Position numbers and translations under genes: made by a program. Source: a virus (lineage: Duplodnaviria; Caudoviricetes). Taken from it: a stretch of DNA of 40,749 nucleotides. The first letter of the stretch is position 1; every line of letters begins with the position of its first letter. The notes beneath the pieces are model-generated. The model saw only the letters and a list, made by a program, of their open reading frames with translations, did not search any database and was not told where the DNA came from. The stretch is taken from positions 1 through 40,749 of the IMG/VR virus record IMGVR_UViG_3300029183_000200. One strand, given 5' to 3'. Positions 2-38,076 of the stretch are shown here, piece by piece.

Positions 2-82
2 CTCGATGAGACTCGTCAGGGCAGCGGTAACATCAAGCTGGTGGTGATGACGCTAGATGATTTCTTAGCGTGGAATGGGTAG
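2..82 (+). CDS. 3' end of a truncated gene, possibly a Holliday-junction resolvase-like nuclease
   Basis: Frame reads LDETRQGSGNIKLVVMTLDDFLAWNG*; the LVVMxLxDF ending resembles small phage PD-(D/E)XK resolvases. Confidence 0.35.
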   Translation, partial: LDETRQGSGNIKLVVMTLDDFLAWNG

Positions 83-115
83 GGCTTACCTATCTCGATA
101 CGCTAGAATGATGTT

Positions 116-240
116 GTCTAGCTTCGTTAGGGCGTTGCCCTGCCCACAGCAGCGGCACGGTGCATAGTGTCTGGCTGCCGGTACGCCTCACCGGTGCTGC
201 GCTAACGTAGGCCAGAGTTGGGGGCTTCGGCCCCCTTCTT
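116..240 (+). ncRNA. putative small structured RNA
   Basis: Nested stems CGTTAG(125-130)/CTAACG(202-207), GCAGC(149-153)/GCTGC(196-200), CCGGT(178-182)/ACCGG(190-194); TAGAAT at 104-109; terminator follows. Confidence 0.45.
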
Positions 241-242
241 TG
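220..242 (+). terminator. intrinsic terminator
   Basis: GGGGGC-TTCG-GCCCCC followed by TTCTTT. Confidence 0.75.
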
Positions 243-306
243 ATAAAATAGAACTGCCCCCGAAGTGGATTTTCAGGGGCAGAAGTCACAGGAAAAGAAG
301 GTTCCC

Positions 307-756
307 ATGACCACATCTCATTCTATACCGCCCAGACTCTTCCGATATGTTGAGGTCAGCCTGAACGGGTGCCTGACGTGGAAAGGCAGGTCGCTAACTT
401 CCGGCTATGGCCGTTTCTACCACAAAGGCAAGCGTTGGAGAGCGCACAGGTTTTTCTACGAGCGACTGGTCGGCCCTATCCCTGATAGCCTAGAACTCGA
501 TCACCTGTGCCGTAACAGACTCTGTGTCAACCATAGACATCTTGAAGCGGTAACACACGCAGAAAATGTACGCAGAGGGGAAGCAGGCAAGCATTCTCCT
601 GAGAAACCACCTCAAACTCATTGCAAGCGGGGCCATGAAATGGCAGGCAGGAACTTAGTCATCATGCCTGCCGTAAGCAGAGGCCGGAGGTACACTCGGC
701 GCAAATGTCGAGCATGCCACAACTTAAGAGACCGCCTCTACAGCCGCCGGAGGTAA
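307..756 (+). CDS. HNH endonuclease (HNH_3/homing type) with C-terminal Cys/His domain
   Basis: GYGRF, AHR, LDHLCRNRLCVNHRHLEAVTHAEN, THCKRGH, CRAC; ATG at 307 preferred over GTG at 265, which lies inside a hairpin. Confidence 0.9.
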   Translation: MTTSHSIPPRLFRYVEVSLNGCLTWKGRSLTSGYGRFYHKGKRWRAHRFFYERLVGPIPDSLELDHLCRNRLCVNHRHLEAVTHAENVRRGEAGKHSPEKPPQTHCKRGHEMAGRNLVIMPAVSRGRRYTRRKCRACHNLRDRLYSRRR

Positions 757-768
757 ACTACATATAAC

Positions 769-875
769 GGTGTTTTGGCGGCGGCGTTAAATCCCGAAGC
801 CGTGAGAGAGCCGCCTGGTTGCAACTGGGCAGAGCGCAAAATGCAGGACAGGGTATTCCTGCCCGCCACAGCACC
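769..875 (+). ncRNA. tRNA-like (non-canonical) structured RNA A
   Basis: Closing stem 769-781/863-875 abuts a T-arm-like stem GCAGGA(843-848)/TCCTGC(857-862); two inner hairpins; no canonical TTCG loop. Confidence 0.45.
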
Positions 876-884
876 TATTTAGCA

Positions 885-964
885 GTAGCCGGGGTGAAAA
901 GGCGATCCGGCCGCGCCTAAGACTCCAAGAGCAATAAACGGGAGCGTTAGCCCCGGCTACTCCA
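885..964 (+). ncRNA. structured RNA B ending in T-CCA
   Basis: Perfect 10-bp stem GTAGCCGGGG/CCCCGGCTAC followed by TCCA; inner hairpins GGCG/CGCC and CTCC/GGAG. Confidence 0.5.
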
Positions 965-1043
965 TTCCAAACTAGAACCCTGTTCGGAACAGCATTCCAA
1001 AGCTACTGGACAGTTTCAAGTGTTTCGATGTCGCTGTCAGGGT

Positions 1044-1726: not shown

Positions 1727-1825
1727 TCAGCTACCGCGTGTCATCGTTGACCGCGGAACATTAACCCGCGTTGCAAACAAGTACGCCAACCCGATAAAAC
1801 CCGTGAGAAGAATCAACCGTTTCAT
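1727..1825 (-). CDS. 32-aa single-TM peptide coupled to the tatC stop
   Basis: MKRLILLTGFIGLAYLFATRVNVPRSTMTRGS*; ATGA overlap with tatC stop; below the ORF-track cutoff. Confidence 0.55.
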   Translation of the reverse strand: MKRLILLTGFIGLAYLFATRVNVPRSTMTRGS

Positions 1826-2718
1826 ACCCGCCTGAACACCTTTCGTATCACAGCTTTAGGACGACTCAAAATCCATCTTACAAGACGCCCCAGACTTCTC
1901 ATCCACAGGTAGTCTCCCTCTGACGGATGCGCTGCCCACGCAAGGAACAACCCGACCTGGTACAGCAAGAGCATCGGCCCAGCAACAAACGCCCATGTCC
2001 ACGGATCTGAGGTCGGCGTGATAATCCCAGCAAAGATCATCATTGCTATGGTGGCGTAGACCGACAGGCTCTTCATCTTCCGGTACGACAAAATGTGCAT
2101 CCGTGAGAGCAGGTACATCACAAGCGGGATCTGGAAGATAACGCCCAGCCAGAACATCAGCTTAAGGATCAGTTCGATGTATTGAGGGAGCGTAATCAGC
2201 GCAACCGCCACACCGTCTGCGAAGTTCAGCAGAAACCGCAGGCTGACCTCAAGCAATATGTAGTAGGCGAACGCCGCTCCAGCGATGAAGAGAACGATGG
2301 ACGTTGGCAGGAAGACCAGCAAGAACCGCTGGTACTTCGGAGGCAGCGTAGGCCGGAAGATGTAGTACAGGCCGAACACAGCAAACGGTGCTGCAGTCAC
2401 AAACCCGCCCAACACGCCGACATTGAGCGTTGTAGCTAGAGGATCGGTCGGTGCTGTAAAAACCGGCGCACCATCAAACGGAGAGAGCCTGCCGTCAGCC
2501 GGAGCCAGCAGCCACCTGAATACATCCTTGTGCTTTATCAGCGTGAACGCACCGCCGGCAAAACCAACCACCGTCACCACTACCAGAACTCGAACTATGC
2601 GCCGCCCGAACCGGAGGAATACATCGCGGTCAGGAAGCCACCCAAAGAGATAGACTATGAGCCGGTTTACAAGCCTGCTGAGAGCATTCCAGTCACCGGG
2701 TTCGGGCGCAGTAACCAC
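1822..2718 (-). CDS. tatC: TatC-family membrane protein (divergent)
   Basis: About six TM segments, PVFTAPTD loop, LFIAGAAFAYYIL, GVIFQIPLV, AGIITPTSDP, PMLLLYQVG match the TatC pattern. Confidence 0.92.
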   Translation of the reverse strand: MVTAPEPGDWNALSRLVNRLIVYLFGWLPDRDVFLRFGRRIVRVLVVVTVVGFAGGAFTLIKHKDVFRWLLAPADGRLSPFDGAPVFTAPTDPLATTLNVGVLGGFVTAAPFAVFGLYYIFRPTLPPKYQRFLLVFLPTSIVLFIAGAAFAYYILLEVSLRFLLNFADGVAVALITLPQYIELILKLMFWLGVIFQIPLVMYLLSRMHILSYRKMKSLSVYATIAMMIFAGIITPTSDPWTWAFVAGPMLLLYQVGLFLAWAAHPSEGDYLWMRSLGRLVRWILSRPKAVIRKVFRRV

Positions 2719-21825: not shown

Positions 21826-23787
21826 TTATCCGAACTGCTGTGTCTGTTCGGGAGTAGCAAGAGTTATCCCGATTGAGTTCGCCGCTGCCTCTCGGCTCTG
21901 GCGTGGTGCTGAAGTGTTAAATCCTGCGTCTGGTGATGGCTGAACCGATCCCGGTGCAACGCCTGAAAGCCCGAATAGCCGAGGATCTATGTTCCTGAGC
22001 GGGTCTTGAGCCTCCGGGTTGGCACTCTGGTCGGTCTGTCTCTGTGCGCCTGCAGTAATGGCCTGCAACGGGTTCTGGAACAGCATCGTGAGGAACGCTA
22101 TCTTCTGAGCGAACCTCTGCATAGCCTCGTCATTGATTAGCTTCTGCATCTCACGTTCCAGTTCCTCGACAGTCGCCTCGTCTCCCCGGCGTTCTGCAGC
22201 AACCATTTGGGTCGTAAGAAGCATGTTCGGCGTGGAAGTGCGCGCCATCTGGGCGAAGATGCGCTCTGCCTCAAGGTCTGAGTCCTGCATCTTGAGAATA
22301 TCTTCCCATGCCGTGAAGTGAGATACCAGCGGCATCCCGTTCGGCCCCGGCTGCGTGGCAAGTTGTGCGGCAAGCCAGCGTTCCTGCTGATCCTGCGGCC
22401 TCTCCGCTACCAACTCTACCGTGATCCTGTCCCTGCCATTAATATCCTCTGGCTTGATCGTCCTGACAAAGCCCTTGCGGTCGCGCGTGCGTCCTGAGAC
22501 CTTGATCGGCTTGTACCGCCCTGTCTCAAACTGAGATGCCAACGCTTCCAGCCCTGCCTCTAAGCAGGACTCGATTGGACGGACGAACGGCTCAAGTCTC
22601 TGCGCTTCTGCCGCTCCGAGAATAGCGAGAGCATTACCTGAGAGCGGAGACGGGATTCGACCGAAGGACTGCGGAGGGAGTGTTGCGTCTGAGAACTCTG
22701 CGTCGGCAAGAGCCTGCATCGAGTCCACATCGCGGGTCATCTCCTGAACCTGAAGCGGAACTATGTCCTCACCGTTCTCAGTCGAAAGAGAAATCTCGGT
22801 CGTATCCTCGTCGATGTCGCCCTCGATCTCCTTCTCTCCGTCGAGAGACATAACCTTCTGTATCTGCATGACAGAACGGCGCGCCATCGTCAAACGGTAC
22901 GAATTTAGCCGATTGATGTAAGGGACAAGGTTCCTGACAGGAGCGAACACCGACTGCGCGAAATGCTCAATATCGCTGATCTGGATGGATTCCGTGGAGT
23001 CCTCTCGCAGTGTCATGTTGCCGCTACCCGTGGAGTGAGCACCGACTGCGCGTGCGACTATCGGAAACCGTTTGGCAAAGGTGTCTGCGGGGCGTTTTGC
23101 CCACTTTCCTTCGACAATCACAGCATTCCAGAACTTGCCGTCTTCCTTCCAGTAATAGTCAGTGACCTGGTGGGTCTGTGACTCGTCCTCATCCTGTTCG
23201 TCCTCGAAAGTGAACTTCGGGTACTCCGCACGAATGGATGCCCGGTCTCGGCGCGTGATAATGGCAGCGGCAACCGGACCGCGGTCTCCGAATTGGATAA
23301 GCAATTGCCGCGGCTTGATAGGTGTTATGTCAACTATCGTCTCGCCGTCAGAGTCTTTCCTGAGCAGGAAGCGCGCTGCAACGTACCCGCCCTGCACAAT
23401 GGCGTTCAGGGCAAGCTGCGTCCTGAGCGGCTGTGCTCCAGAGTCCTCTAGCTTTTGGTCAGCAATCTTGAGCATTCCGATTGAGAGGCGTTCGTAGTTC
23501 TCGTCCTTCTCACGTTCCTCACGGGAGTCGTGATCCATCTCGGTGCGGATGATCTGGTTTGCGCCTGCAATGACGCCTATCAGCTTGTCAGCGACGATAC
23601 GTGGCTTTGAAGATGTGAACGCTTCTTCTGCACGCACTCCGTCGCCCCTGGGCGGGATGAACGGCTTCAGGTTGTAGAGTTCCCAGTCATCGTCCATGAC
23701 GCGGAAACGTGCTCCCCATGCGTTCTCACGCCGCGAGACCCAGTCGAGGATCTGTTCAATCTTCTTCTTGCCTGTAGATGGAGGCAT
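21826..23787 (-). CDS. portal protein
   Basis: 653 aa directly after TerL; LPPQSFG..LSGNAL motif and helical C-terminus. Confidence 0.85.
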   Translation of the reverse strand: MPPSTGKKKIEQILDWVSRRENAWGARFRVMDDDWELYNLKPFIPPRGDGVRAEEAFTSSKPRIVADKLIGVIAGANQIIRTEMDHDSREEREKDENYERLSIGMLKIADQKLEDSGAQPLRTQLALNAIVQGGYVAARFLLRKDSDGETIVDITPIKPRQLLIQFGDRGPVAAAIITRRDRASIRAEYPKFTFEDEQDEDESQTHQVTDYYWKEDGKFWNAVIVEGKWAKRPADTFAKRFPIVARAVGAHSTGSGNMTLREDSTESIQISDIEHFAQSVFAPVRNLVPYINRLNSYRLTMARRSVMQIQKVMSLDGEKEIEGDIDEDTTEISLSTENGEDIVPLQVQEMTRDVDSMQALADAEFSDATLPPQSFGRIPSPLSGNALAILGAAEAQRLEPFVRPIESCLEAGLEALASQFETGRYKPIKVSGRTRDRKGFVRTIKPEDINGRDRITVELVAERPQDQQERWLAAQLATQPGPNGMPLVSHFTAWEDILKMQDSDLEAERIFAQMARTSTPNMLLTTQMVAAERRGDEATVEELEREMQKLINDEAMQRFAQKIAFLTMLFQNPLQAITAGAQRQTDQSANPEAQDPLRNIDPRLFGLSGVAPGSVQPSPDAGFNTSAPRQSREAAANSIGITLATPEQTQQFG

Positions 23788-25436
23788 TAGCTCGCTCGTC
23801 TCATTTCACGGATGATGTCGCGGACATCTCTGGAAGCACGGTTCCGCTTTTTCTGCTTGATCTTCGAGGACTTTCTGCCAGTAAGTGTATGCCCTAACTG
23901 GTTTATGAACAGATAGGTGAGCGCGCGCACAGCGTCACAGTATTTATCTTCGGGCGTCTTGCCTATTACCTGTCCTGTGCGGTCAGTCGCCCACCTGTAC
24001 GGATGGATCTCCCCCGAATTGGGGTGTCCTGCCGGATACGGCATCCCGCCAAATTCAGCTGCCGCGCCCATCATCGAAGGTGAGATTGCAAACACCGGCT
24101 GTCCACAATTGGAGTCTACGCAGAGGTTGAGCATCGACTGCATCCGGTAGATGCCAGGAAGGATGTTGACCTTCTCTGACATGCAGACCATACCGGTCTC
24201 TTTGCGCCAAACCTCTTTAACCGGGTCTGATGCTCCTGCATGGTACGTTCCTGCAATGTCAATAACGCCGACCTTGTGCGGATTCTTCCACCAGAACCGA
24301 CCCATTGCGATCTCGCAGATCTTCTCGTTCTTCAGTTTCGTCTCGTATATCTCGTCAATGCCCCAGAAGTGCTGTCTACCGCAGGGGAGATGCCGACGTT
24401 GCACGACCTCTACTGCATACGACGAGGGCTGGCCTGAGAAGCCGGGGTCGATGCCGATAAGCACAGGCTCTTCAGGGTTGTACTCCGCATCTTCTGGAAG
24501 GATGTGAACGGTCGGGTCGAACGTCTCGAACACCCTGCCCTTTGGCGGCGATGGAATGGCTAAGACACGTTCCTTGTACTCGTCTTCTGAGAGGTCGGCG
24601 CGCATCTGCCGTATCTCTGGGTCTCGGTCTCCCTTCTTATAGATGAAGATGTTGGAGAACGAGGGCATTGAGAACGACTTGGCGTTATCTCTTGTCTGGT
24701 TTGCAGGGAGTTGCCACTTCGAGTAGAGCGTGGGATACCAGCCTGTCGAACCCTCAAAGGTCGAGATCATGATGATCGCACCGTAGCCGGGGAAGTCAGC
24801 GCGGGCGCGGGCGACACGGGAGCGAAGCCGGGTGTACGTATCGTAGGTGCAGATTGCGGCCTCGCAGAGCAGGACGAACACCGGTGATTCCATCCTGAGC
24901 GCAGCCATGCCGTCGTCTGATGACTTGGTCTTTATCTTGAAGACGCCGCCTGGAACCTGAATGTGAATCTCGCCAGGATCTACCTTCGAGTCGGCCTTGA
25001 GAATGGTCAGGTTCTTGGTCTGGTTGAGCCACGTTTTCAGGTACTCGAACTCACGAGATGTCTGCTCGTATGATGCACCGACCAGCCATGCGACTTCGTT
25101 AGCCGCCCTGCGTGAGCCGTTTGCGTGCTCCCCGAGAAAGGCCAAAAGAATCATGTACGCCTTCATCGCGCCTGTGAATGACTTTCCTACCTGCTCGCCA
25201 CCGGCTACGAGGCATGTGAGGTGGTCGTCTTCGAGAATGTCCAGCTGGTAGTTGTACGGGTCTTGCAGAGGCTTGCCGAGTTTCTTTCCGCACACGTGGC
25301 AGTTCTCCCCTGTAGGGACGTACCCGCACTTCCGGTGTTTGACATAGTCGGACGGCTCGAAGTCGCGCCAGATGGCCTTCTGCATAGCATCAATGGGGAA
25401 CTGGTGCAGGTTCGTCCTTGTGTCTGCCGTGACCAT
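23787..25436 (-). CDS. terminase large subunit
   Basis: Walker A GGEQVGKS, Walker B VLLCEAA, coupling motif STFEG, RNase H-like IGIDPG and DKYCDAVRAL. Confidence 0.93.
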   Translation of the reverse strand: MVTADTRTNLHQFPIDAMQKAIWRDFEPSDYVKHRKCGYVPTGENCHVCGKKLGKPLQDPYNYQLDILEDDHLTCLVAGGEQVGKSFTGAMKAYMILLAFLGEHANGSRRAANEVAWLVGASYEQTSREFEYLKTWLNQTKNLTILKADSKVDPGEIHIQVPGGVFKIKTKSSDDGMAALRMESPVFVLLCEAAICTYDTYTRLRSRVARARADFPGYGAIIMISTFEGSTGWYPTLYSKWQLPANQTRDNAKSFSMPSFSNIFIYKKGDRDPEIRQMRADLSEDEYKERVLAIPSPPKGRVFETFDPTVHILPEDAEYNPEEPVLIGIDPGFSGQPSSYAVEVVQRRHLPCGRQHFWGIDEIYETKLKNEKICEIAMGRFWWKNPHKVGVIDIAGTYHAGASDPVKEVWRKETGMVCMSEKVNILPGIYRMQSMLNLCVDSNCGQPVFAISPSMMGAAAEFGGMPYPAGHPNSGEIHPYRWATDRTGQVIGKTPEDKYCDAVRALTYLFINQLGHTLTGRKSSKIKQKKRNRASRDVRDIIREMRRAS

Positions 25437-25771
25437 TAAGCGATCTCCGGTTCGATAAAGATTTCCAGCTTTTCGGCTGATGAGTTCGGATAGGTCTGGA
25501 TTGCCCCGCTTACGAACGTGACCTCAAACTCACCTTTGTACGTACCGGGAGTATCTGTGTCTCCCGAAGCCCACGTATATTTGACGATTCCAGACGCCTC
25601 CGTGACAGAGGTTACGGACTGCTCTGAGACCTTGACGACACCGCCTATGTCTGACATTGAGAACACGATGGTCGCACCGGTTACGTCTACTGCGTTATTG
25701 TCGCCGTCCTTCAGGGTTACCTGCAGGTCTGGCGAGGTATCGTTCTGCTTCATGAAAAACTGTGGCATCAC
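25436..25771 (-). CDS. BppU N-terminal-like protein (copy 3)
   Basis: MKQNDTSP..LKD..G.V.Y.W..GDTDTPG.Y.GEF.VT....TYPN. Confidence 0.75.
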   Translation of the reverse strand: MMPQFFMKQNDTSPDLQVTLKDGDNNAVDVTGATIVFSMSDIGGVVKVSEQSVTSVTEASGIVKYTWASGDTDTPGTYKGEFEVTFVSGAIQTYPNSSAEKLEIFIEPEIA

Positions 25772-26094
25772 GCGATTTCAGGCTCGATAATGACTTCAAT
25801 CTGCTTCTCTTTTGAGTTCGGGTACGAAGTAACATCTCCCGCAAGGTTCGTGACCTTAAACTCTCCGAGATAGTTACCCGGTGTGTCCGTATCTCCCGCA
25901 GCCCAGTCGTAGCGGACGGTTCCTGAAGGCCCATCGACTATCGTTGCAGCTGCGTTGAACTTCCTGTTCCCGCCAGAAGCGAGTCCAAAGAAGACGGAAA
26001 ACCCGGTAAGATTCTCGACGTTGCCCTCTCCGTCTTTCAGGACAGCCTGAATTGAAGGGGATGTGTCATTTTCCTTGATGTAGAACTTCGGCAT
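25768..26094 (-). CDS. BppU N-terminal-like protein (copy 2)
   Basis: IKENDTSP..GTVRYDWAAGDTDTPGNYLGEFKVT..SYPN. Confidence 0.75.
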   Translation of the reverse strand: MPKFYIKENDTSPSIQAVLKDGEGNVENLTGFSVFFGLASGGNRKFNAAATIVDGPSGTVRYDWAAGDTDTPGNYLGEFKVTNLAGDVTSYPNSKEKQIEVIIEPEIA

Positions 26095-26435
26095 CAGAAG
26101 ACCCTCTCTTCGACGATGACGTTCAGCTGCTCAGAGCGTGCGTTGGGCCATGTCCTGACGGTTCCATCTGAGAACGTGACCTGGAACTCTCCCTTGAACG
26201 TACCTGGTGAGGTAAGAACACCGGTCTCCCAGAAGTAACTGACGATGCCGAGAGCGGGATTAGGCACAGATGCAGGCCGGTTATTGATATTCCCGACGTT
26301 GCCTCCAATGTCAGACATGGAGAAGACGACGGTTGCATCTGTCAGGTCGATTGCGTTCTCGTCGCCGTCGAGAAGCGTGGCCTCGATAGCAGGGAGGTCG
26401 TCTGAGTCTTTTATGTAGAAGAACGATTCTGCCAT
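26094..26435 (-). CDS. BppU N-terminal-like protein (copy 1)
   Basis: IKDSDDLP..GIVSYFW..PGTFKGEFQVTF..TWPN. Confidence 0.75.
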   Translation of the reverse strand: MAESFFYIKDSDDLPAIEATLLDGDENAIDLTDATVVFSMSDIGGNVGNINNRPASVPNPALGIVSYFWETGVLTSPGTFKGEFQVTFSDGTVRTWPNARSEQLNVIVEERVF

Positions 26436-30877: not shown

Positions 30878-31384
30878 CTACCCCCCGGCCTCGGTATTCC
30901 CCAGCATCTTTCCTGTTTCCCTGCTTTTCTGAGCTTCCAGAGCCGCGGAATCCGCTGACTCCCTGGCTGTCTGCAACCGCTGCATCTCTGCTCCCAAATA
31001 TGAGAAAAGCTCAGCTTCATCGCGGGAGAGTCTGCGGTCACTGGTCAACGCTCCAATGTGCCTGCCGATTAGCTCCTGACCCTTGAAAGCAGCACTCCAG
31101 CTTTCAGATGCGCGAGCCTCGCTAACCATCTCAAGCGTGTCACGTAACCAGTCAGCGTGGGAATACTCAACCTGAACTGCGAGAGTTGCTTGTTTCCGTT
31201 TAATTGCAGCAACAACTTTAGGTTCTTTCAGGAGATTAGTTGCTTGAGCGTGAGCTGACTTTTGGGAGTAACCGGCTTTAACAGCCGCTTGGGTGGCATT
31301 GAAGCCATTTGTGAGGTATTCGCTGATGAACGCTTCATGTCTTGGTAGAAGCGGAGTATTCTCTGCTAGTTTTGCTTGAGGCAT
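30878..31384 (-). CDS. terminase small subunit
   Basis: FISEYL..FNATQAAVKAGYSQKSA...A..LL..P.V. Confidence 0.92.
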   Translation of the reverse strand: MPQAKLAENTPLLPRHEAFISEYLTNGFNATQAAVKAGYSQKSAHAQATNLLKEPKVVAAIKRKQATLAVQVEYSHADWLRDTLEMVSEARASESWSAAFKGQELIGRHIGALTSDRRLSRDEAELFSYLGAEMQRLQTARESADSAALEAQKSRETGKMLGNTEAGG

Positions 31385-31674
31385 GAGACGAGTTTATCGG
31401 ACAGGGTTTGGGTCTGGTTTGGTGGGTTCTTGACCAACCTGATGCCACCAATCAGAGTTCTTTATGCTGGCCTTGCTCTGACTGGGCTCCAATTGCGTCC
31501 TGTATATCGGGAATACACGCCAGCTTATGCTTTCCGCAGTCCTGCTCGTCTATCTTGACGGTAGCTGCGTCCAGCGGGAGAGGAATCGTTCCTACTGGCA
31601 GAATCGTTTTAAGGGCGCAGAGGTTGTAAACAGGTGAGAAAACAACATGCGCCAGGAACGATTCACAGATGATT

Positions 31675-31866
31675 CTAACACCCGCGCTTAACCGCTGCAT
31701 ACACAGTTGTGCGGGATATCTCGTAACGCCTGGATATCTCTGTTATCGACAAGCCCTGCTGGTAGTCCTTACAGATCAACTTGTCACGAGCACGCATCTG
31801 CTTCCTGCGGTGCTTGTGCCACTTCTCTCGACCTTCATTCATTTGCTCAACTGTCAATAAAGGCAA
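31675..31866 (-). CDS. HTH DNA-binding protein (putative repressor/regulator)
   Basis: RDKLICKDYQQGLSITEISRRYEISRTTVY; AGGAG before TTG at 31866; divergent from the early genes. Confidence 0.75.
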   Translation of the reverse strand: MPLLTVEQMNEGREKWHKHRRKQMRARDKLICKDYQQGLSITEISRRYEISRTTVYAAVKRGC

Positions 31867-31880
31867 TTTCGCTCCTATGC

Positions 31881-31910
31881 TTGACACATGTCTTATCTAT
31901 CATGTACAGT
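31881..31910 (+). promoter_or_regulatory. sigma70-type early promoter
   Basis: TTGACA-18 nt-TACAGT at the strand switch. Confidence 0.6.
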
Positions 31911-33223: not shown

Positions 33224-33406
33224 ATGGAAATCACACTAAGCAACGTAGATGCAGACTTGCTAGAACGGCAGCGCAAAACTCTCAATGAAATGCGTCCGGA
33301 AGTACGAGCAGAACTACCACCAAGCCAGAGAGACGCACTCGACGGCATCCTGAACATGCTGGATGCATGGAGTGACGAACTGGCAGAGAGAGCAGATATC
33401 ACGTAG
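33224..33406 (+). CDS. hypothetical protein
   Basis: GGGAG RBS. Confidence 0.7.
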   Translation: MEITLSNVDADLLERQRKTLNEMRPEVRAELPPSQRDALDGILNMLDAWSDELAERADIT

Positions 33407-33520
33407 GACTCTCTCTCCCTACGAAGCGGCTCCCGGTAGTCGCAGATGCCCGCCTGCTTCCTTGCCCCCCTAGCCGTAGGTCTAACAGGGAAGTGGGCGG
33501 GCTACTCAAAGGATTAAGAA

Positions 33521-35318: not shown

Positions 35319-35516
35319 GTGGACATCAACGCTGAGTTGGAAGAACTTGAAACAGCAGCACTTAAAGAAGTTGGCCTGCTGCTAGATCGAAGCGCAAGGC
35401 TTATGGAGATCCAAAGGGAGACACGAGAAGCCGAGCAACGACTACAAGGCTACAGAAAGCGGATCGCTAAGTTGAAAGGACAAAGCGCAGATGACATTCA
35501 CGCCAGAACAGATTGA
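35319..35516 (+). CDS. small coiled-coil protein
   Basis: GGGAG RBS, GTG start. Confidence 0.65.
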   Translation: MDINAELEELETAALKEVGLLLDRSARLMEIQRETREAEQRLQGYRKRIAKLKGQSADDIHARTD

Positions 35517-36333
35517 AGCACTAGATGCCAACCTTGACGGTTCAGTTGTCAAAGAGCGACAGGGCTTTAGCTACATCGAAGGCTGGTGGGCTGTTAAAGA
35601 AGCCAACCGTATCTTCGGTCACGGCAACTGGAGCCACAGGATTGATTCAATGAACCCGGTCGTCACTGCCACTCAGGGCAACCCAAATTACGATAACGGA
35701 AAGGGACGACAGGGATACCTAGTCGCCTACACATGCCAGGTCTCGGTGACAGTTAGTACGCCAGACGGAGATGGCAACATTCATTACGGCATCGGCTACG
35801 GAGAAGGTATCGACTACAACAACTGCGGGCAGGCATACGAGGCCGCAGTCAAAGAAGCTGAGACCGATGCCATGAAGCGAGCTCTAAAGAACTGGGGCAA
35901 CCCGTTCGGCCTCGCTCTGTATGACAAAGACCAGTCCAGTGTTGACCGCGTGCCATCAGACAAAGGCTATGGCATCTGCCCAGACCACGGCGTGCCGTAC
36001 TCACTCAGTGACAAACAGAAAGCATCTGGGTTCAGGCCAAGCCACAAAGAAGGCGATGGCTGGTGCGAGAAGCCCGCTGATGCCCCTGAGCCTGCCGCAG
36101 AGCGCAAGCAACCTGAATGGATGACTCCTGAGTACCACGAAGCATCCAACGTGCTCGCACAGCTTTTCGACAACGGCGACCAGCGGCTCCAGTACGTGAA
36201 AGACGTGACCGGCAGAGAAATCGAACACCCTGAAGAAGTCACGACTGAGGAATGGATAAAAGTTAAACAGTCAGCAGTTGGGGATCTTGCTGAGATGAAC
36301 GGCACTGAAGAAGCACAAGAGTTGGACTTTTAG
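35491..36333 (+). CDS. Rad52/Rad22-family single-strand annealing recombinase
   Basis: SYIEGW..EANRIFG..W, AVKEAETDAMKRAL..GNPFGLALYDK. Confidence 0.92.
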   Translation: MTFTPEQIEALDANLDGSVVKERQGFSYIEGWWAVKEANRIFGHGNWSHRIDSMNPVVTATQGNPNYDNGKGRQGYLVAYTCQVSVTVSTPDGDGNIHYGIGYGEGIDYNNCGQAYEAAVKEAETDAMKRALKNWGNPFGLALYDKDQSSVDRVPSDKGYGICPDHGVPYSLSDKQKASGFRPSHKEGDGWCEKPADAPEPAAERKQPEWMTPEYHEASNVLAQLFDNGDQRLQYVKDVTGREIEHPEEVTTEEWIKVKQSAVGDLAEMNGTEEAQELDF

Positions 36334-36340
36334 AAAGATC

Positions 36341-36829
36341 ATGCAGAAAGCTCAGTACAGAAACGCATACATAGACACCTACGAGCACAAGGACACAGGC
36401 TGCCACATCGCACCTTCATGCCTGAACTGCCCCCTAGAAAGATGTGTTCTTGAAGGCAGGCTCAACTTCTCTGCACGCAGCCTCAGATGGGCACGGATCT
36501 GGCGGCTTGTTCAGGCTGGCATGAAAGTAGTTGAGGTCGCAAGACAGATGAGAGTCTCTGAGCGCACGGTATCCAGGGTCAAACAGTTCAAGGGAGTCAT
36601 GCCAATGCCGAACCACCCAACGGATATCGAAGACGGCAAAGGCGCACACATCCATGCACTAGAACGTGTGCATTACAAGCCCTACAAGGCCGCTATAGCC
36701 TTCAGGAAGCCCACACACATAGTTACCTACCCTCAGTCCTGTCCTCGGTGCTCTGCAGGGGCCACGGTCGATTTCAGGAAAAGAACAGCAGCCTGCCAGC
36801 TTAGGTGTGGGTGGGAGTTTGGGGGATAG
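36341..36829 (+). CDS. Cys-cluster plus HTH regulator with C-terminal Zn ribbon
   Basis: DTGCHIAPSCLNCPLERC, VARQMRVSERTVSR, CPRC..CQLRC. Confidence 0.75.
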   Translation: MQKAQYRNAYIDTYEHKDTGCHIAPSCLNCPLERCVLEGRLNFSARSLRWARIWRLVQAGMKVVEVARQMRVSERTVSRVKQFKGVMPMPNHPTDIEDGKGAHIHALERVHYKPYKAAIAFRKPTHIVTYPQSCPRCSAGATVDFRKRTAACQLRCGWEFGG

Positions 36830-37048
36830 ATGGAGATCGTAATTCGTCCTGCTAATTGGAACGGCTGGGAAGGTATCAATGAAGCAACTGCCCATTGCCG
36901 CTGCGGATTCACCTATCGAATCCGCATGAAGTTCAAGAATGAGACAGGGGGGCTGATGCGCATTCATGATCGAGTTTGCCCTTCCTGCAAAACAACAGAC
37001 ACACGGAAGGTCGAGTCTGATCCTGAAACTTTCACGCTCGGAAGCTAG
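36830..37048 (+). CDS. zinc-ribbon protein
   Basis: CRC...CPSC. Confidence 0.65.
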   Translation: MEIVIRPANWNGWEGINEATAHCRCGFTYRIRMKFKNETGGLMRIHDRVCPSCKTTDTRKVESDPETFTLGS

Positions 37049-37066
37049 TGACAGTGCCAAAGGAGG

Positions 37067-37096
37067 TTGAATCTACAGAATAGTGTGTGCTAGGGT
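37067..37096 (+). promoter_or_regulatory. putative promoter
   Basis: TTGAAT-18 nt-TAGGGT with TGn extension. Confidence 0.4.
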
Positions 37097-37154
37097 TCAC
37101 CCTGTGTCACATTGATTAGGTATTATGTAGTTGCGTCACGCGTCGCTCGCACAG

Positions 37155-37206
37155 ACCGCTCCGGACATGCCTAATCAGTATGTGACACACCGGAGCGGTT
37201 TTTTAT
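37155..37206 (+). terminator. terminator/attenuator hairpin
   Basis: ACCGCTCCGG(37155-37164)/CCGGAGCGGT(37190-37199) then a T-run. Confidence 0.7.
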
Positions 37207-37214
37207 TGCTCCAA

Positions 37215-37610
37215 AAACTGTGAGGCTGACAGCAGAACAGCCTGGGGCTACGAGCCGGATACCTTATCCAGACCGCAGCTACATACCTGACAACTCAATA
37301 TCGAAGATGGCGGCAACGCGACAGCACGTTGGGATTGTCTTCGGTGGTGGAAGCAAACGGCACGCTGTCAGAGGCCACAAGTTTTGCTCACAGACACCGA
37401 AGGGAGCCGGGTGGGTTAACCGGCCCGCCATCTTTATGTCGAAACCGCAGCAGTCACGGTCTGAAGACACGGACTCTGCAAAACCGCAGGCCGCAATGCG
37501 TATGAACGGCGGGGATGAAGCGACGAACTCACGGTGAGCCGTCATGCTTTTTCTCTCTTGCCCCTTCCGGGGGGTAGGGGGGATTCTGCTCTGAATCTTC
37601 GGTGTCCGTC
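37215..37610 (+). ncRNA. putative large structured RNA / origin region
   Basis: Many nested stems (e.g. 37303-37313/37425-37435, 37339-37346/37395-37402), no convincing protein ORF, G6-TA-G6 at 37569-37582. Confidence 0.5.
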
Positions 37611-37623
37611 ATGGAGAAAACAA

Positions 37624-38076
37624 GTGACTTCAAAGAGAACTTGGGGAGAAAGAAACACTAGAAGACTTGCTAGAGCTAGAAGACAAGCAGCAAGAACTTC
37701 AGGAAACTCAGTGTTAAGGATTCGGTCTAAGTCTTTGTATCCAGACCGTGACCCTGAAGAACTCAACGGCCCTGTCATTGTGAAGGTTCCTGGCAAAGAG
37801 CCTGTTGAACAGAAGCAGATAGATGAACGGGATCAGAGGCGTTACGCATCAGGTCCACTCAGAGCAAGGGTTCTTCTACGGGACAACTATCGGTGTCGGT
37901 ACTGCGGCACTGGCGTTGAGAATGACACAGCAAACGTCGATCACGTTATTCCGTGGAAGTACGGCGGGCAGACTCGAATGAGAAACCTCGTGACCTGCTG
38001 TAGAGATTGCAACCGGCGTAAAGGCAACAACACATGGAAGCCAACGAAGATTCAGCGTCGAAGAAAGAATCGTTAG
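37624..38076 (+). CDS. HNH endonuclease (McrA-like) with Arg-rich N-terminal helix
   Basis: RDNYRCRYCG..VDHVIP..GG....NLVTCCRDCNRRKG; GGAG before GTG at 37624. Confidence 0.88.
   Translation: MTSKRTWGERNTRRLARARRQAARTSGNSVLRIRSKSLYPDRDPEELNGPVIVKVPGKEPVEQKQIDERDQRRYASGPLRARVLLRDNYRCRYCGTGVENDTANVDHVIPWKYGGQTRMRNLVTCCRDCNRRKGNNTWKPTKIQRRRKNR

Follow-up and report, generated by a model that had tools for sequence, protein, structure and literature searches.

What is the purpose of the long gap ahead of the HNH endonuclease gene in this tailed-phage genome: does it start replication, or does it govern the genes that follow? A preliminary description had taken positions 37215-37610, with their hairpins and a G6-TA-G6 run, for a candidate RNA-primed replication origin standing in for an initiator, or else for a new non-coding RNA. 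The window, meaning the whole stretch of DNA analysed here (40,749 nt), is identical to its IMG/VR record (IMGVR_UViG_3300029183_000200), which is classed as linear.

Genome context and completeness

The - strand carries the late genes, among them those for TerL (23787-25436) and TerS (30878-31384), and the + strand, from ~32 kb, the early genes, most of which have no family match in PHROGs or Pfam. The genes around the gap are the following:

35491-36333, +: Sak/Rad52 recombinase, in the early region
36341-36829, +: HTH protein with an N-terminal Cys cluster
36830-37048: zinc-ribbon-like ORF, followed by a gap of 575 nt and then by the HNH endonuclease gene
37624-38076, +: stand-alone HNH endonuclease of 150 aa (Pfam HNH_5/HNH) with an Arg-rich N-terminus

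The host is likely a member of the Chloroflexota. The Atlas clusters nearest to the HTH protein are mostly from Chloroflexota (scores <0.9, a lead only), and a prophage found in 1 of 401 genomes (class of a Dehalococcoidia genome) has six late proteins in common with the window, including TerL. The single nearest cluster to the HTH protein is auto-named "Middle operon regulator" (score 0.88, likewise only a lead), and the protein is a candidate to recognise the TGTGWCACA pair at 37103 and 37181. Elsewhere in the genome, a full TatC is encoded at 1822-2718 (-) (Pfam E 5e-41; NCBIfam above the cut-off). It closes the late operon, a position expected to hold lysis genes, but PHROGs, Pfam, and NCBIfam scans of the window ORFs recognised neither a lysin nor a holin. 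Just upstream of TerL, at 25436-26435 (-), are three tandem paralogous ORFs of ~110 aa, all belonging to phrog_1627.

Scans of 56 ORFs against PHROGs and of 40 against Pfam turned up no initiator, helicase, primase, or polymerase. The last 15 bases of the contig (40735-40749) are an amplification primer, although the record is nonetheless rated complete, and in all three runs examined, contigs extend past 40734, by 560 and 752 nt in two of them. This continuation has no counterpart inside the window and was not recovered from IMG/VR. With the contig truncated at 40734 and followed by unseen sequence, replication genes, an initiator included, could sit in the gap beyond that position. A drop in contig depth across 36947-37598 in run X1 and missing cover in run X3 were not taken as findings, since the library has primer tails and depth is given per contig.

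Extent and folding of the structured block

The structured element spans ~37101-37623 and is thus larger than first described, with 110 nt added on the 5′ side; its 3′ limit is the ribosome-binding site of the HNH gene. Homology to P0003 begins at codon 37624, whose SD duplex of -6.4 compares with -2.0 at 37534; with this GTG as the most likely start and its SD at 37613-37616, the block ends at the HNH start site. Its features are as follows:

37101-37123, +: 5′ antiterminator strand, ~21-bp pairing with 37167-37189 (-39.9 kcal/mol)
37103-37111, +: palindrome TGTGTCACA, within the antiterminator strand
37112-37135, +: long-range "lock" segment, which can later pair with 37274-37296 (p 0.77)
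37153-37205, +: intrinsic-terminator-like hairpin, with an inner hairpin, a 3′ bulge, and then T6 (z -5.2 to -5.6)
37220-37537, +: orphan ORF of 105 codons that overlaps the block, its stop overlapping a GTG in the HNH frame (GTGA); translation putative
37303-37435, +: four-way junction, formed by an 11-bp closing stem and the arms 37314-37331, 37338-37403, and 37406-37424
37393-37402, +: switch strand, pairing with 37339-37346 (conformer A) or 37597-37606 (conformer B)
37453-37475, +: strand complementary to HNH coding sequence at 37730-37752 (11 perfect pairs; 83% over 23 nt)
37548-37583, +: hairpin of a pyrimidine tract, C4, a loop, and G6-TA-G6 (z -3.6, on the + strand only)
37613-37626, +: SD GGAG (37613-37616) and GTG 37624, the likely start of the HNH gene

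The helices named in the preliminary description are all present: AGGCTG/CAGCCT at 37223-37228/37238-37243, the GGCT/AGCC and GGATA/TATCC hairpins where it had placed them, the 11-bp stem 37303-37313/37425-37435 (10 Watson-Crick pairs plus one G-U) enclosing CTTCGGTG (37339-37346) paired with CACCGAAG (37395-37402), GCCGG/CCGGC at 37406-37410/37420-37424, and ACGGC/GCCGT with T5 at 37548-37552. The G6-TA-G6 run lies at 37569-37582, and the second partner of 37393-37402, at 37597-37606, is perfect. Three features were absent from that description, namely a third junction hairpin (37314-37331), the terminator/antiterminator block (37101-37205), and the pairing of the G-run with 37551-37566.

The suggestion of one large structured region held in that the stretch folds better than its shuffles overall, but the folding is uneven. 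The 396 nt of 37215-37610 give moderate values of z -2.45 on the + strand and -3.20 on the - strand. By parts (+/-), the junction at 37300-37440 gives -3.2/-4.1, 37215-37300 gives -1.7/-1.3, the G hairpin (37545-37590) gives -3.6 on the + strand but only -0.7 on the - strand, and 37440-37545 is at chance (0.0/-0.9). At the 150-nt scale, segments starting in or just before 37215-37610 rank 57th to 240th of 542 for folding, so other parts of the genome are more strongly folded. The wider region 37095-37760, which was picked after looking, reaches z -5.6 (20 shuffles) and contains five perfect helices of at least 10 bp, versus 0.4 ± 0.5 expected (30 shuffles). Two other folded, non-coding or weakly coding stretches were noted in the genome, at 33400-33520 (+), in the early region, and at 31560-31720, near divergent promoters (z -3.8 and -2.9, respectively); a sigma-70 promoter at 31881 scores 10/12.

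To place the block among known elements, Rfam was searched across the window and gave zero matches at E≤1, including over the junction (37303-37435), and ARAGORN found nothing. Searches by blastn against phages and plasmids returned chance matches only; exact element patterns in IMG/VR gave zero matches in one search and three in another, all within long ORFs on the C-rich strand; and nhmmer searches of 109 and then 251 loci recovered the G-run word as the sole match. A one-sequence covariance model of the junction found only itself at E<3 in the window plus 99 loci, and matched none of 151 Dehalococcoidia-class genomes. Neighboring genes led no further: the Sak/Rad52 search reached no viral relative, the early region is missing from the TerL relatives L003-L005, and the prophage of genome G110 has the head-tail module in common with the window but not the early genes or the element. 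In the literature searched (largely open-access, main text without supplements), there was no description of the element or of the word in phage origins, and the texts matching the G-run word were, among the matches listed, all mitochondrial genome papers but one. The stretch is a real, uncatalogued structured element for which no homologue was reached.

At the 5′ end, the terminator-like hairpin and the 21-bp antiterminator are mutually exclusive. The best partner of 37165-37190 in the whole window is 37101-37123 (-28.7, versus -24.4 for the next), and part of this helix stems from the two copies of the TGTGWCACA palindrome (37103-37111 and 37181-37189), the sole copies in the window, which might just as well be operators at the DNA level. 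Snapshots of co-transcriptional folding give the antiterminator p 0.86-0.99 for a 3′ end at 37190; with the 3′ end at 37203, the terminator is favoured at equilibrium for five of six 5′-end choices, so that read-through would need kinetic trapping. A simple terminator scan with a loop limit of 8 nt gave no flag at 37153-37205. A lone -10-like TATTAT is present at 37121-37126 (+). Across the element, neither strand gave a complete sigma-70 promoter at 9/12, nor did the surroundings of 37112-37135 at 8/12; the sites returned were weak 8/12 ones, in a scan that also missed ColE1's own forward promoter. The motif A[AG]ACCGC, a pattern picked after looking, has four + strand copies within 330 nt (37153, 37270, 37442, and 37481) out of 18 on the entire + strand, and one inverted copy in the terminator arm (37195-37201); these may serve as binding sites for a protein or offer the 3′ arm of the terminator another strand to pair with.

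Further downstream, the four-way junction folds at z -3.8, with helix probabilities of 0.82-0.99. The switch proposed from the second partner of 37393-37402 is energetically plausible, with ensemble energies of -167.2 and -165.5 kcal/mol, conformer B lying 1.7 kcal/mol above A and making up 0-7% at equilibrium. Forcing 37393-37402 onto 37597-37606 opens the junction and covers part of the SD region, but the effect on the SD is small: from conformer A to B, the unpaired probability falls from 0.74 to 0.49 for 37613-37620 and from 0.56 to 0.46 for GGAG, a modest difference in accessibility. The strand at 37453-37475 is likewise complementary to 37269-37275, and the probability of its helix is 0.10 or 0.99, depending on the ends folded. 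The G-run forms the 3′ arm of a hairpin with 37551-37566 that relies on G-U pairs, both G6 runs being predicted to be paired in RNA (unpaired probability 0.19 and 0.02), and the pyrimidine tract of this hairpin can alternatively pair with the HNH SD (p 0.45 in 37540-37650, 0.0 in longer contexts).

Leader, origin, and other readings of the block

The reading that we favor, tentatively and without calling it probable, is that 37101-37623 is a terminator-gated leader RNA of the IsrK/P4 kind that limits expression of the HNH gene and the early genes downstream. Transcripts arriving from the upstream early operon would fold the antiterminator (37101-37123/37167-37189) before the 3′ arm of the terminator emerges, and would read through. 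A transcript from a putative promoter near 37135 would lack the antiterminator strand and would be expected to stop at the U-run, giving an RNA of ~70 nt whose inner loop would be antisense to the antiterminator strand and which could act in trans, like IsrK or the P4 CI RNA. The presumed read-through RNA would toggle between the two near-equal folds, one of which would put 37393-37402 beside the HNH start, partly over the SD region; translation of the 105-codon ORF, if any, could be linked by the GTGA overlap to that of the HNH frame, and the bistable long RNA may in this way tune the HNH gene and the downstream early genes.

Relatives of the HNH endonuclease in the viral, metagenome, and genome contigs scanned come from distant loci only, none with similar DNA. 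Among 16 loci whose upstream DNA was inspected, four chosen by eye (L006, L011, L013, and L018) have a hairpin-plus-U-run leader ahead of the HNH gene (z -4.3 to -6.1). In L006, the closest locus, promoter, leader, and HNH gene are directly adjacent and there is no long block, while in L013 and L018 a further 240-260 nt behind the leader fold at chance (z +0.6 and -1.1), so that the long block is without a real analogue. Complementarity of the 5′ strand to the inner loop was significant in one of five relatives tested (L011). In L018, positions 120-480 hold a promoter, a terminator-like hairpin, and a multi-hairpin block before the HNH relative (z -4.4, no Rfam match). The phage itself has an HNH_3 gene at 307-756; upstream of it, 60-300 (+) folds at z -5.2, with a terminator-like hairpin at its end, and downstream, 755-1040 (+) has long stems but z -1.0. 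The stretches around this gene are possibly a second HNH leader or an intron-like element. Three ideas were dropped: paired G-runs as a general trait of leaders in this HNH subfamily (a non-coding one occurs upstream in only 1 of 10 distinct loci), the 5′ hairpin as the sort of leader that initiator genes usually have (1 of 39 initiator loci had a hairpin with a T-run at z<-3), and the ORF before the HNH gene in L016 as an initiator (no PHROG match).

The arguments for a leader are the terminator, at z -5.6, the antiterminator seen in the snapshots, the two near-equal conformers, and the ending of the block at an SD, together with the leaders before four HNH relatives and the folded stretch upstream of the phage's other HNH gene. 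Against it stand the lack of a promoter found for the short RNA, a terminator favored at equilibrium, and the small change at the SD, as well as complementarity in a single relative, the want of a long-block analogue, and the rarity of paired G-runs among the HNH loci. The G-run hairpin is unexplained by the leader model, except as a competitor of the anti-SD tract.

It is around this hairpin that the main rival is built, an RNA-primed origin, which we consider rather unlikely and which is compatible with the same terminator gate. A read-through RNA of ~450 nt would prime rightward DNA synthesis by way of a persistent R-loop or an RNA-DNA G-quadruplex at 37569-37582, with trimming by RNase H, and the attenuator would set the frequency. 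The word itself points toward replication. It occurs once in the window, with 0.01 expected; its 14-mer is identical to teleost mitochondrial CSB-2 as given in PMC3739747; and it is the reverse of a C-run word carried in phage initiator genes, although here it lies outside any initiator gene. The pattern C4-loop-G6-TA-G5 was found in ~920 viral stretches, of which 120 were retrieved. Among 80 flanked loci, 67 have the word in an ORF of at least 180 aa on the C-rich strand, one on the G-rich strand only, and 12 on neither. From 66 complete ORFs, 51 were scanned after 15 near-duplicate-looking or truncated ones were left out, and 43 of these, which are not fully independent, match initiator, DnaD-like, or primosomal PHROGs; the remaining eight comprise one terminase, one with only unknown families, and six with no match. 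Within the initiator ORFs, the word falls in all three reading frames (21/19/3) and is thus kept as a nucleotide signal. Kept across frames in many unrelated phage initiator genes and equal to teleost CSB-2, the word stands here outside any gene, with all three - strand frames interrupted by stops around it, which makes the locus a clean test of the word's function.

Other observations agree with an RNA-primed origin, namely the lack of an initiator, primase, helicase, or polymerase among the 56 ORFs scanned, the HNH relative in L012 that directly follows a DnaC-like loader gene, and the recurrence of CTTCGGTG at a distance of 258 nt, near the 247 nt that separate the G6 runs of ColE1, which may be coincidence. 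If the + strand is transcribed here, as we infer from gene direction, the G-run falls in the rightward transcript, as described for CSB II (PMC6317783). Several findings tell against such an origin. Sequence is missing where the early region ends; folding predicts both G-runs to be paired; a second G6 ~250 nt upstream and an A5 after the G-run are absent; and neither similarity to ColE1 (best E 0.18) nor a convincing counter-transcript promoter was found. A GC-skew check gave no significant step at the element (p 0.07-0.24), with the cumulative minimum at 31149, near the coding-strand switch, and skew was dropped as evidence for an origin. Nor is a role proven for the word in initiator genes themselves. 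What endures of the origin first proposed is its structure, a plausible alternative helix, and a G-run linked to replication signals, set against the differing ColE1 geometry, the paired G-runs, the flat skew, and the upstream terminator; an upstream terminator and an end at the HNH start fit a regulatory leader at least as well.

The word is also found away from initiator genes. Other viruses carry it in non-coding stretches that are rich in hairpins and have no long ORF across the word, in L124 (~330 nt beside the match at 2501), L138 (2150-2540), L156 (2250-2530, just before an SSB-like gene), and L178 (2400-2750); those of L124, L138, and L156 have no credible Rfam match, and all four are candidates for a class of initiator-free origin elements. 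In the host stretch G110 C4 827056-847702, six hairpin-plus-G-run words are dispersed within 60 kb as REP-like elements, of which five are repeats of ~40 nt that hardly differ from one another, so the word is not origin-specific. Given these non-coding hairpin regions and host repeats, the word points to an origin but does not prove one. A bolder form of RNA priming, unlikely in our estimate, is that the phage swapped its initiator protein for an attenuator-gated primer RNA and retained, of the initiator-gene origin, nothing but the C-run/G-run core, turned so that the G-run is transcribed and forms an R-loop in the style of CSB II. Were it true, a dsDNA phage would be using the replication-primer word of vertebrate mitochondria, and a function would be suggested for a word found in hundreds of initiator genes; R-loop priming would mean initiator-free replication in small tailed phages, linked to mitochondrial primer formation.

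Alternatively, and quite improbably, the signal acts or once acted at the DNA level, 37530-37612 being an inverted remnant of the origin core of an initiator gene. If active, it would be a single-stranded DNA hairpin or a helicase-loading site, and the surrounding stems would be single-strand initiation structures. The - strand translates to an initiator-linker-like peptide around PPYPP/PPTP and folds as DNA at z -5.5, the same word occurs in the four non-coding viral stretches above, one of them before an SSB-like gene, and ARRPOF and GEBRO offer precedents for structured replication regions that may act as single-stranded DNA, as described in PMC5737381. However, the iteron array is lacking (one repeated 9-mer beside the window's word, whereas all 43 initiator loci have an array, with a median of 10), as is any pronounced AT-rich tract (A fraction 0.40 at the word, versus 0.50 ± 0.12), the G hairpin needs G-U pairs and is significant on the + strand only, and six similar words are dispersed over 60 kb of the G110 host.

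It is very improbable that the block is an orphan 105-aa gene, translationally coupled to the HNH gene, with ordinary terminator hairpins and stems that are partly due to chance. The frame is open and overlaps the HNH frame at GTGA, most early genes of the phage likewise have no family match, and codon usage resembles that of real genes: it beats shuffles at p 0.01-0.02 under all-gene and late-gene models (p 0.16-0.25 under the early-gene model), and the score of 0.065 falls in the range of real genes (in-frame 0.17 ± 0.08, off-frame -0.23 ± 0.12). Even so, this codon signal is weak, at p about 0.01, and a frame as long arises in 23% of shuffles (P 0.23). The ORF is absent from the gene calls, has no SD at any of its three possible starts, and has zero homologues in 5.8 billion proteins and 1.84 billion representatives; moreover, the five 10-bp helices far exceed chance, and homology of the HNH protein begins at 37624, with an SD of its own.

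Least probable of all is a stand-alone RNA bound by the Arg-rich HNH protein as a guide or scaffold, whose G-run, directly complementary to the initiator C-run of other phages, could aim the nuclease at their initiator genes: the Arg-rich N-terminal stretch is conserved in P0003, and in the PDB the protein best matches Cas9 proteins, an IscB, and HNH-domain proteins 730-940 aa long, but these matches span the generic HNH domain only, no RuvC or RRXRR domain was detected by Pfam in the 150 aa, the IscB model scores 53 bits on the HNH part only, far under its cut-off of 175, Rfam gave no HEARO match, and the closest HNH locus, L006, lacks the long block.

Comparison with known systems

Lambda-type origins lie inside initiator genes. 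The block carries the C-run/loop/G4 word of such genes, but outside an initiator ORF, opposite to transcription, and without an iteron array. ColE1 replicates from a structured RNA II transcript with an alternative-fold switch and no initiator, as described in PMC5043065 and PMC5935869, and resembles the block in a structured transcript of ~450-500 nt, in G6 runs near the 3′ end, and in the fold switch. In ColE1 (NC_001371), however, the G6 runs are at 928 and 1175, 247 nt apart, and are followed by A5 at 1193, whereas here they are at 37569 and 37577, 2 nt apart, with no A5 and with a terminator at the 5′ end; ColE1 also has a promoter ~550 bp upstream and a promoter for the antisense RNA I, as against the weak 8/12 sites found here. 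Priming in ColE1 goes through a persistent R-loop, processing by RNase H, and extension by Pol I, and at CSB II a hybrid RNA-DNA G-quadruplex forms, with termination just beyond it. With CSB II, the block has in common the C6-TA-C6/G6-TA-G6 word and a G-rich strand in the presumed transcript, going by the accounts in PMC6317783 and PMC3739747, but its G-run is the 3′ arm of a hairpin and has no T-run of at least 5 after it. The omega-RNA of HEARO/IscB, as described in PMC9755519, is likewise a structured RNA adjoining an Arg-rich HNH ORF; IscB has RuvC and HNH with an RRXRR/PLMP region, in contrast to the small HNH protein of the window. On the features tested, the block falls outside the ColE1, lambda-type, and HEARO families.

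Control of phage HNH genes by hairpins at the ribosome-binding site is established, according to PMC2988022, and the T-even genes treated there (I-TevI, I-TevII, I-TevIII, segB, and mobE) resemble the present case in that an RNA structure abuts the SD of a nuclease gene and an anti-SD tract is available. The block is much larger and multi-domain, no nested late promoter was found in it, and sequestration of the SD is predicted only in a short context (p 0.45).

The closest functional parallels are the leaders of Gifsy-1 (IsrK-orf45-anrP) and P4 (seqA/CI RNA/seqC), which, as described in PMC4825925, have a terminator-ended short RNA, of the kind predicted here, and a small ORF ahead of the regulated gene; IsrK also has a read-through isoform with two near-isoenergetic folds (-85.66 versus -84.21), comparable to the 1.7 kcal/mol gap here, and in P4 the leader system gates replication genes. 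The hairpin with T6 is present and would close a putative short RNA as an intrinsic terminator, and internal complementarity of the P4/IsrK type occurs three times (37167-37189/37101-37123, 37393-37402/37597-37606, and 37453-37463/37742-37752). The differences are equally plain: no sequence or Rfam family match links the block to P4 CI, P1 c4, or IsrK; an HNH endonuclease gene lies downstream rather than icd/kil-antirepressor genes; the inner loop of the terminator is complementary to the upstream strand rather than to the small ORF; and the block is ~420 nt long and ends in a G-run hairpin, with no promoter identified. By analogy, then, the element would work like an IsrK/P4 leader while standing outside that family, having no model match and another gene downstream. 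If it is a leader, the ways in which phages are known to restrain nucleases and early genes would gain a large terminator/antiterminator and bistable RNA not catalogued before, in a little-studied phage lineage whose host is likely Chloroflexota.
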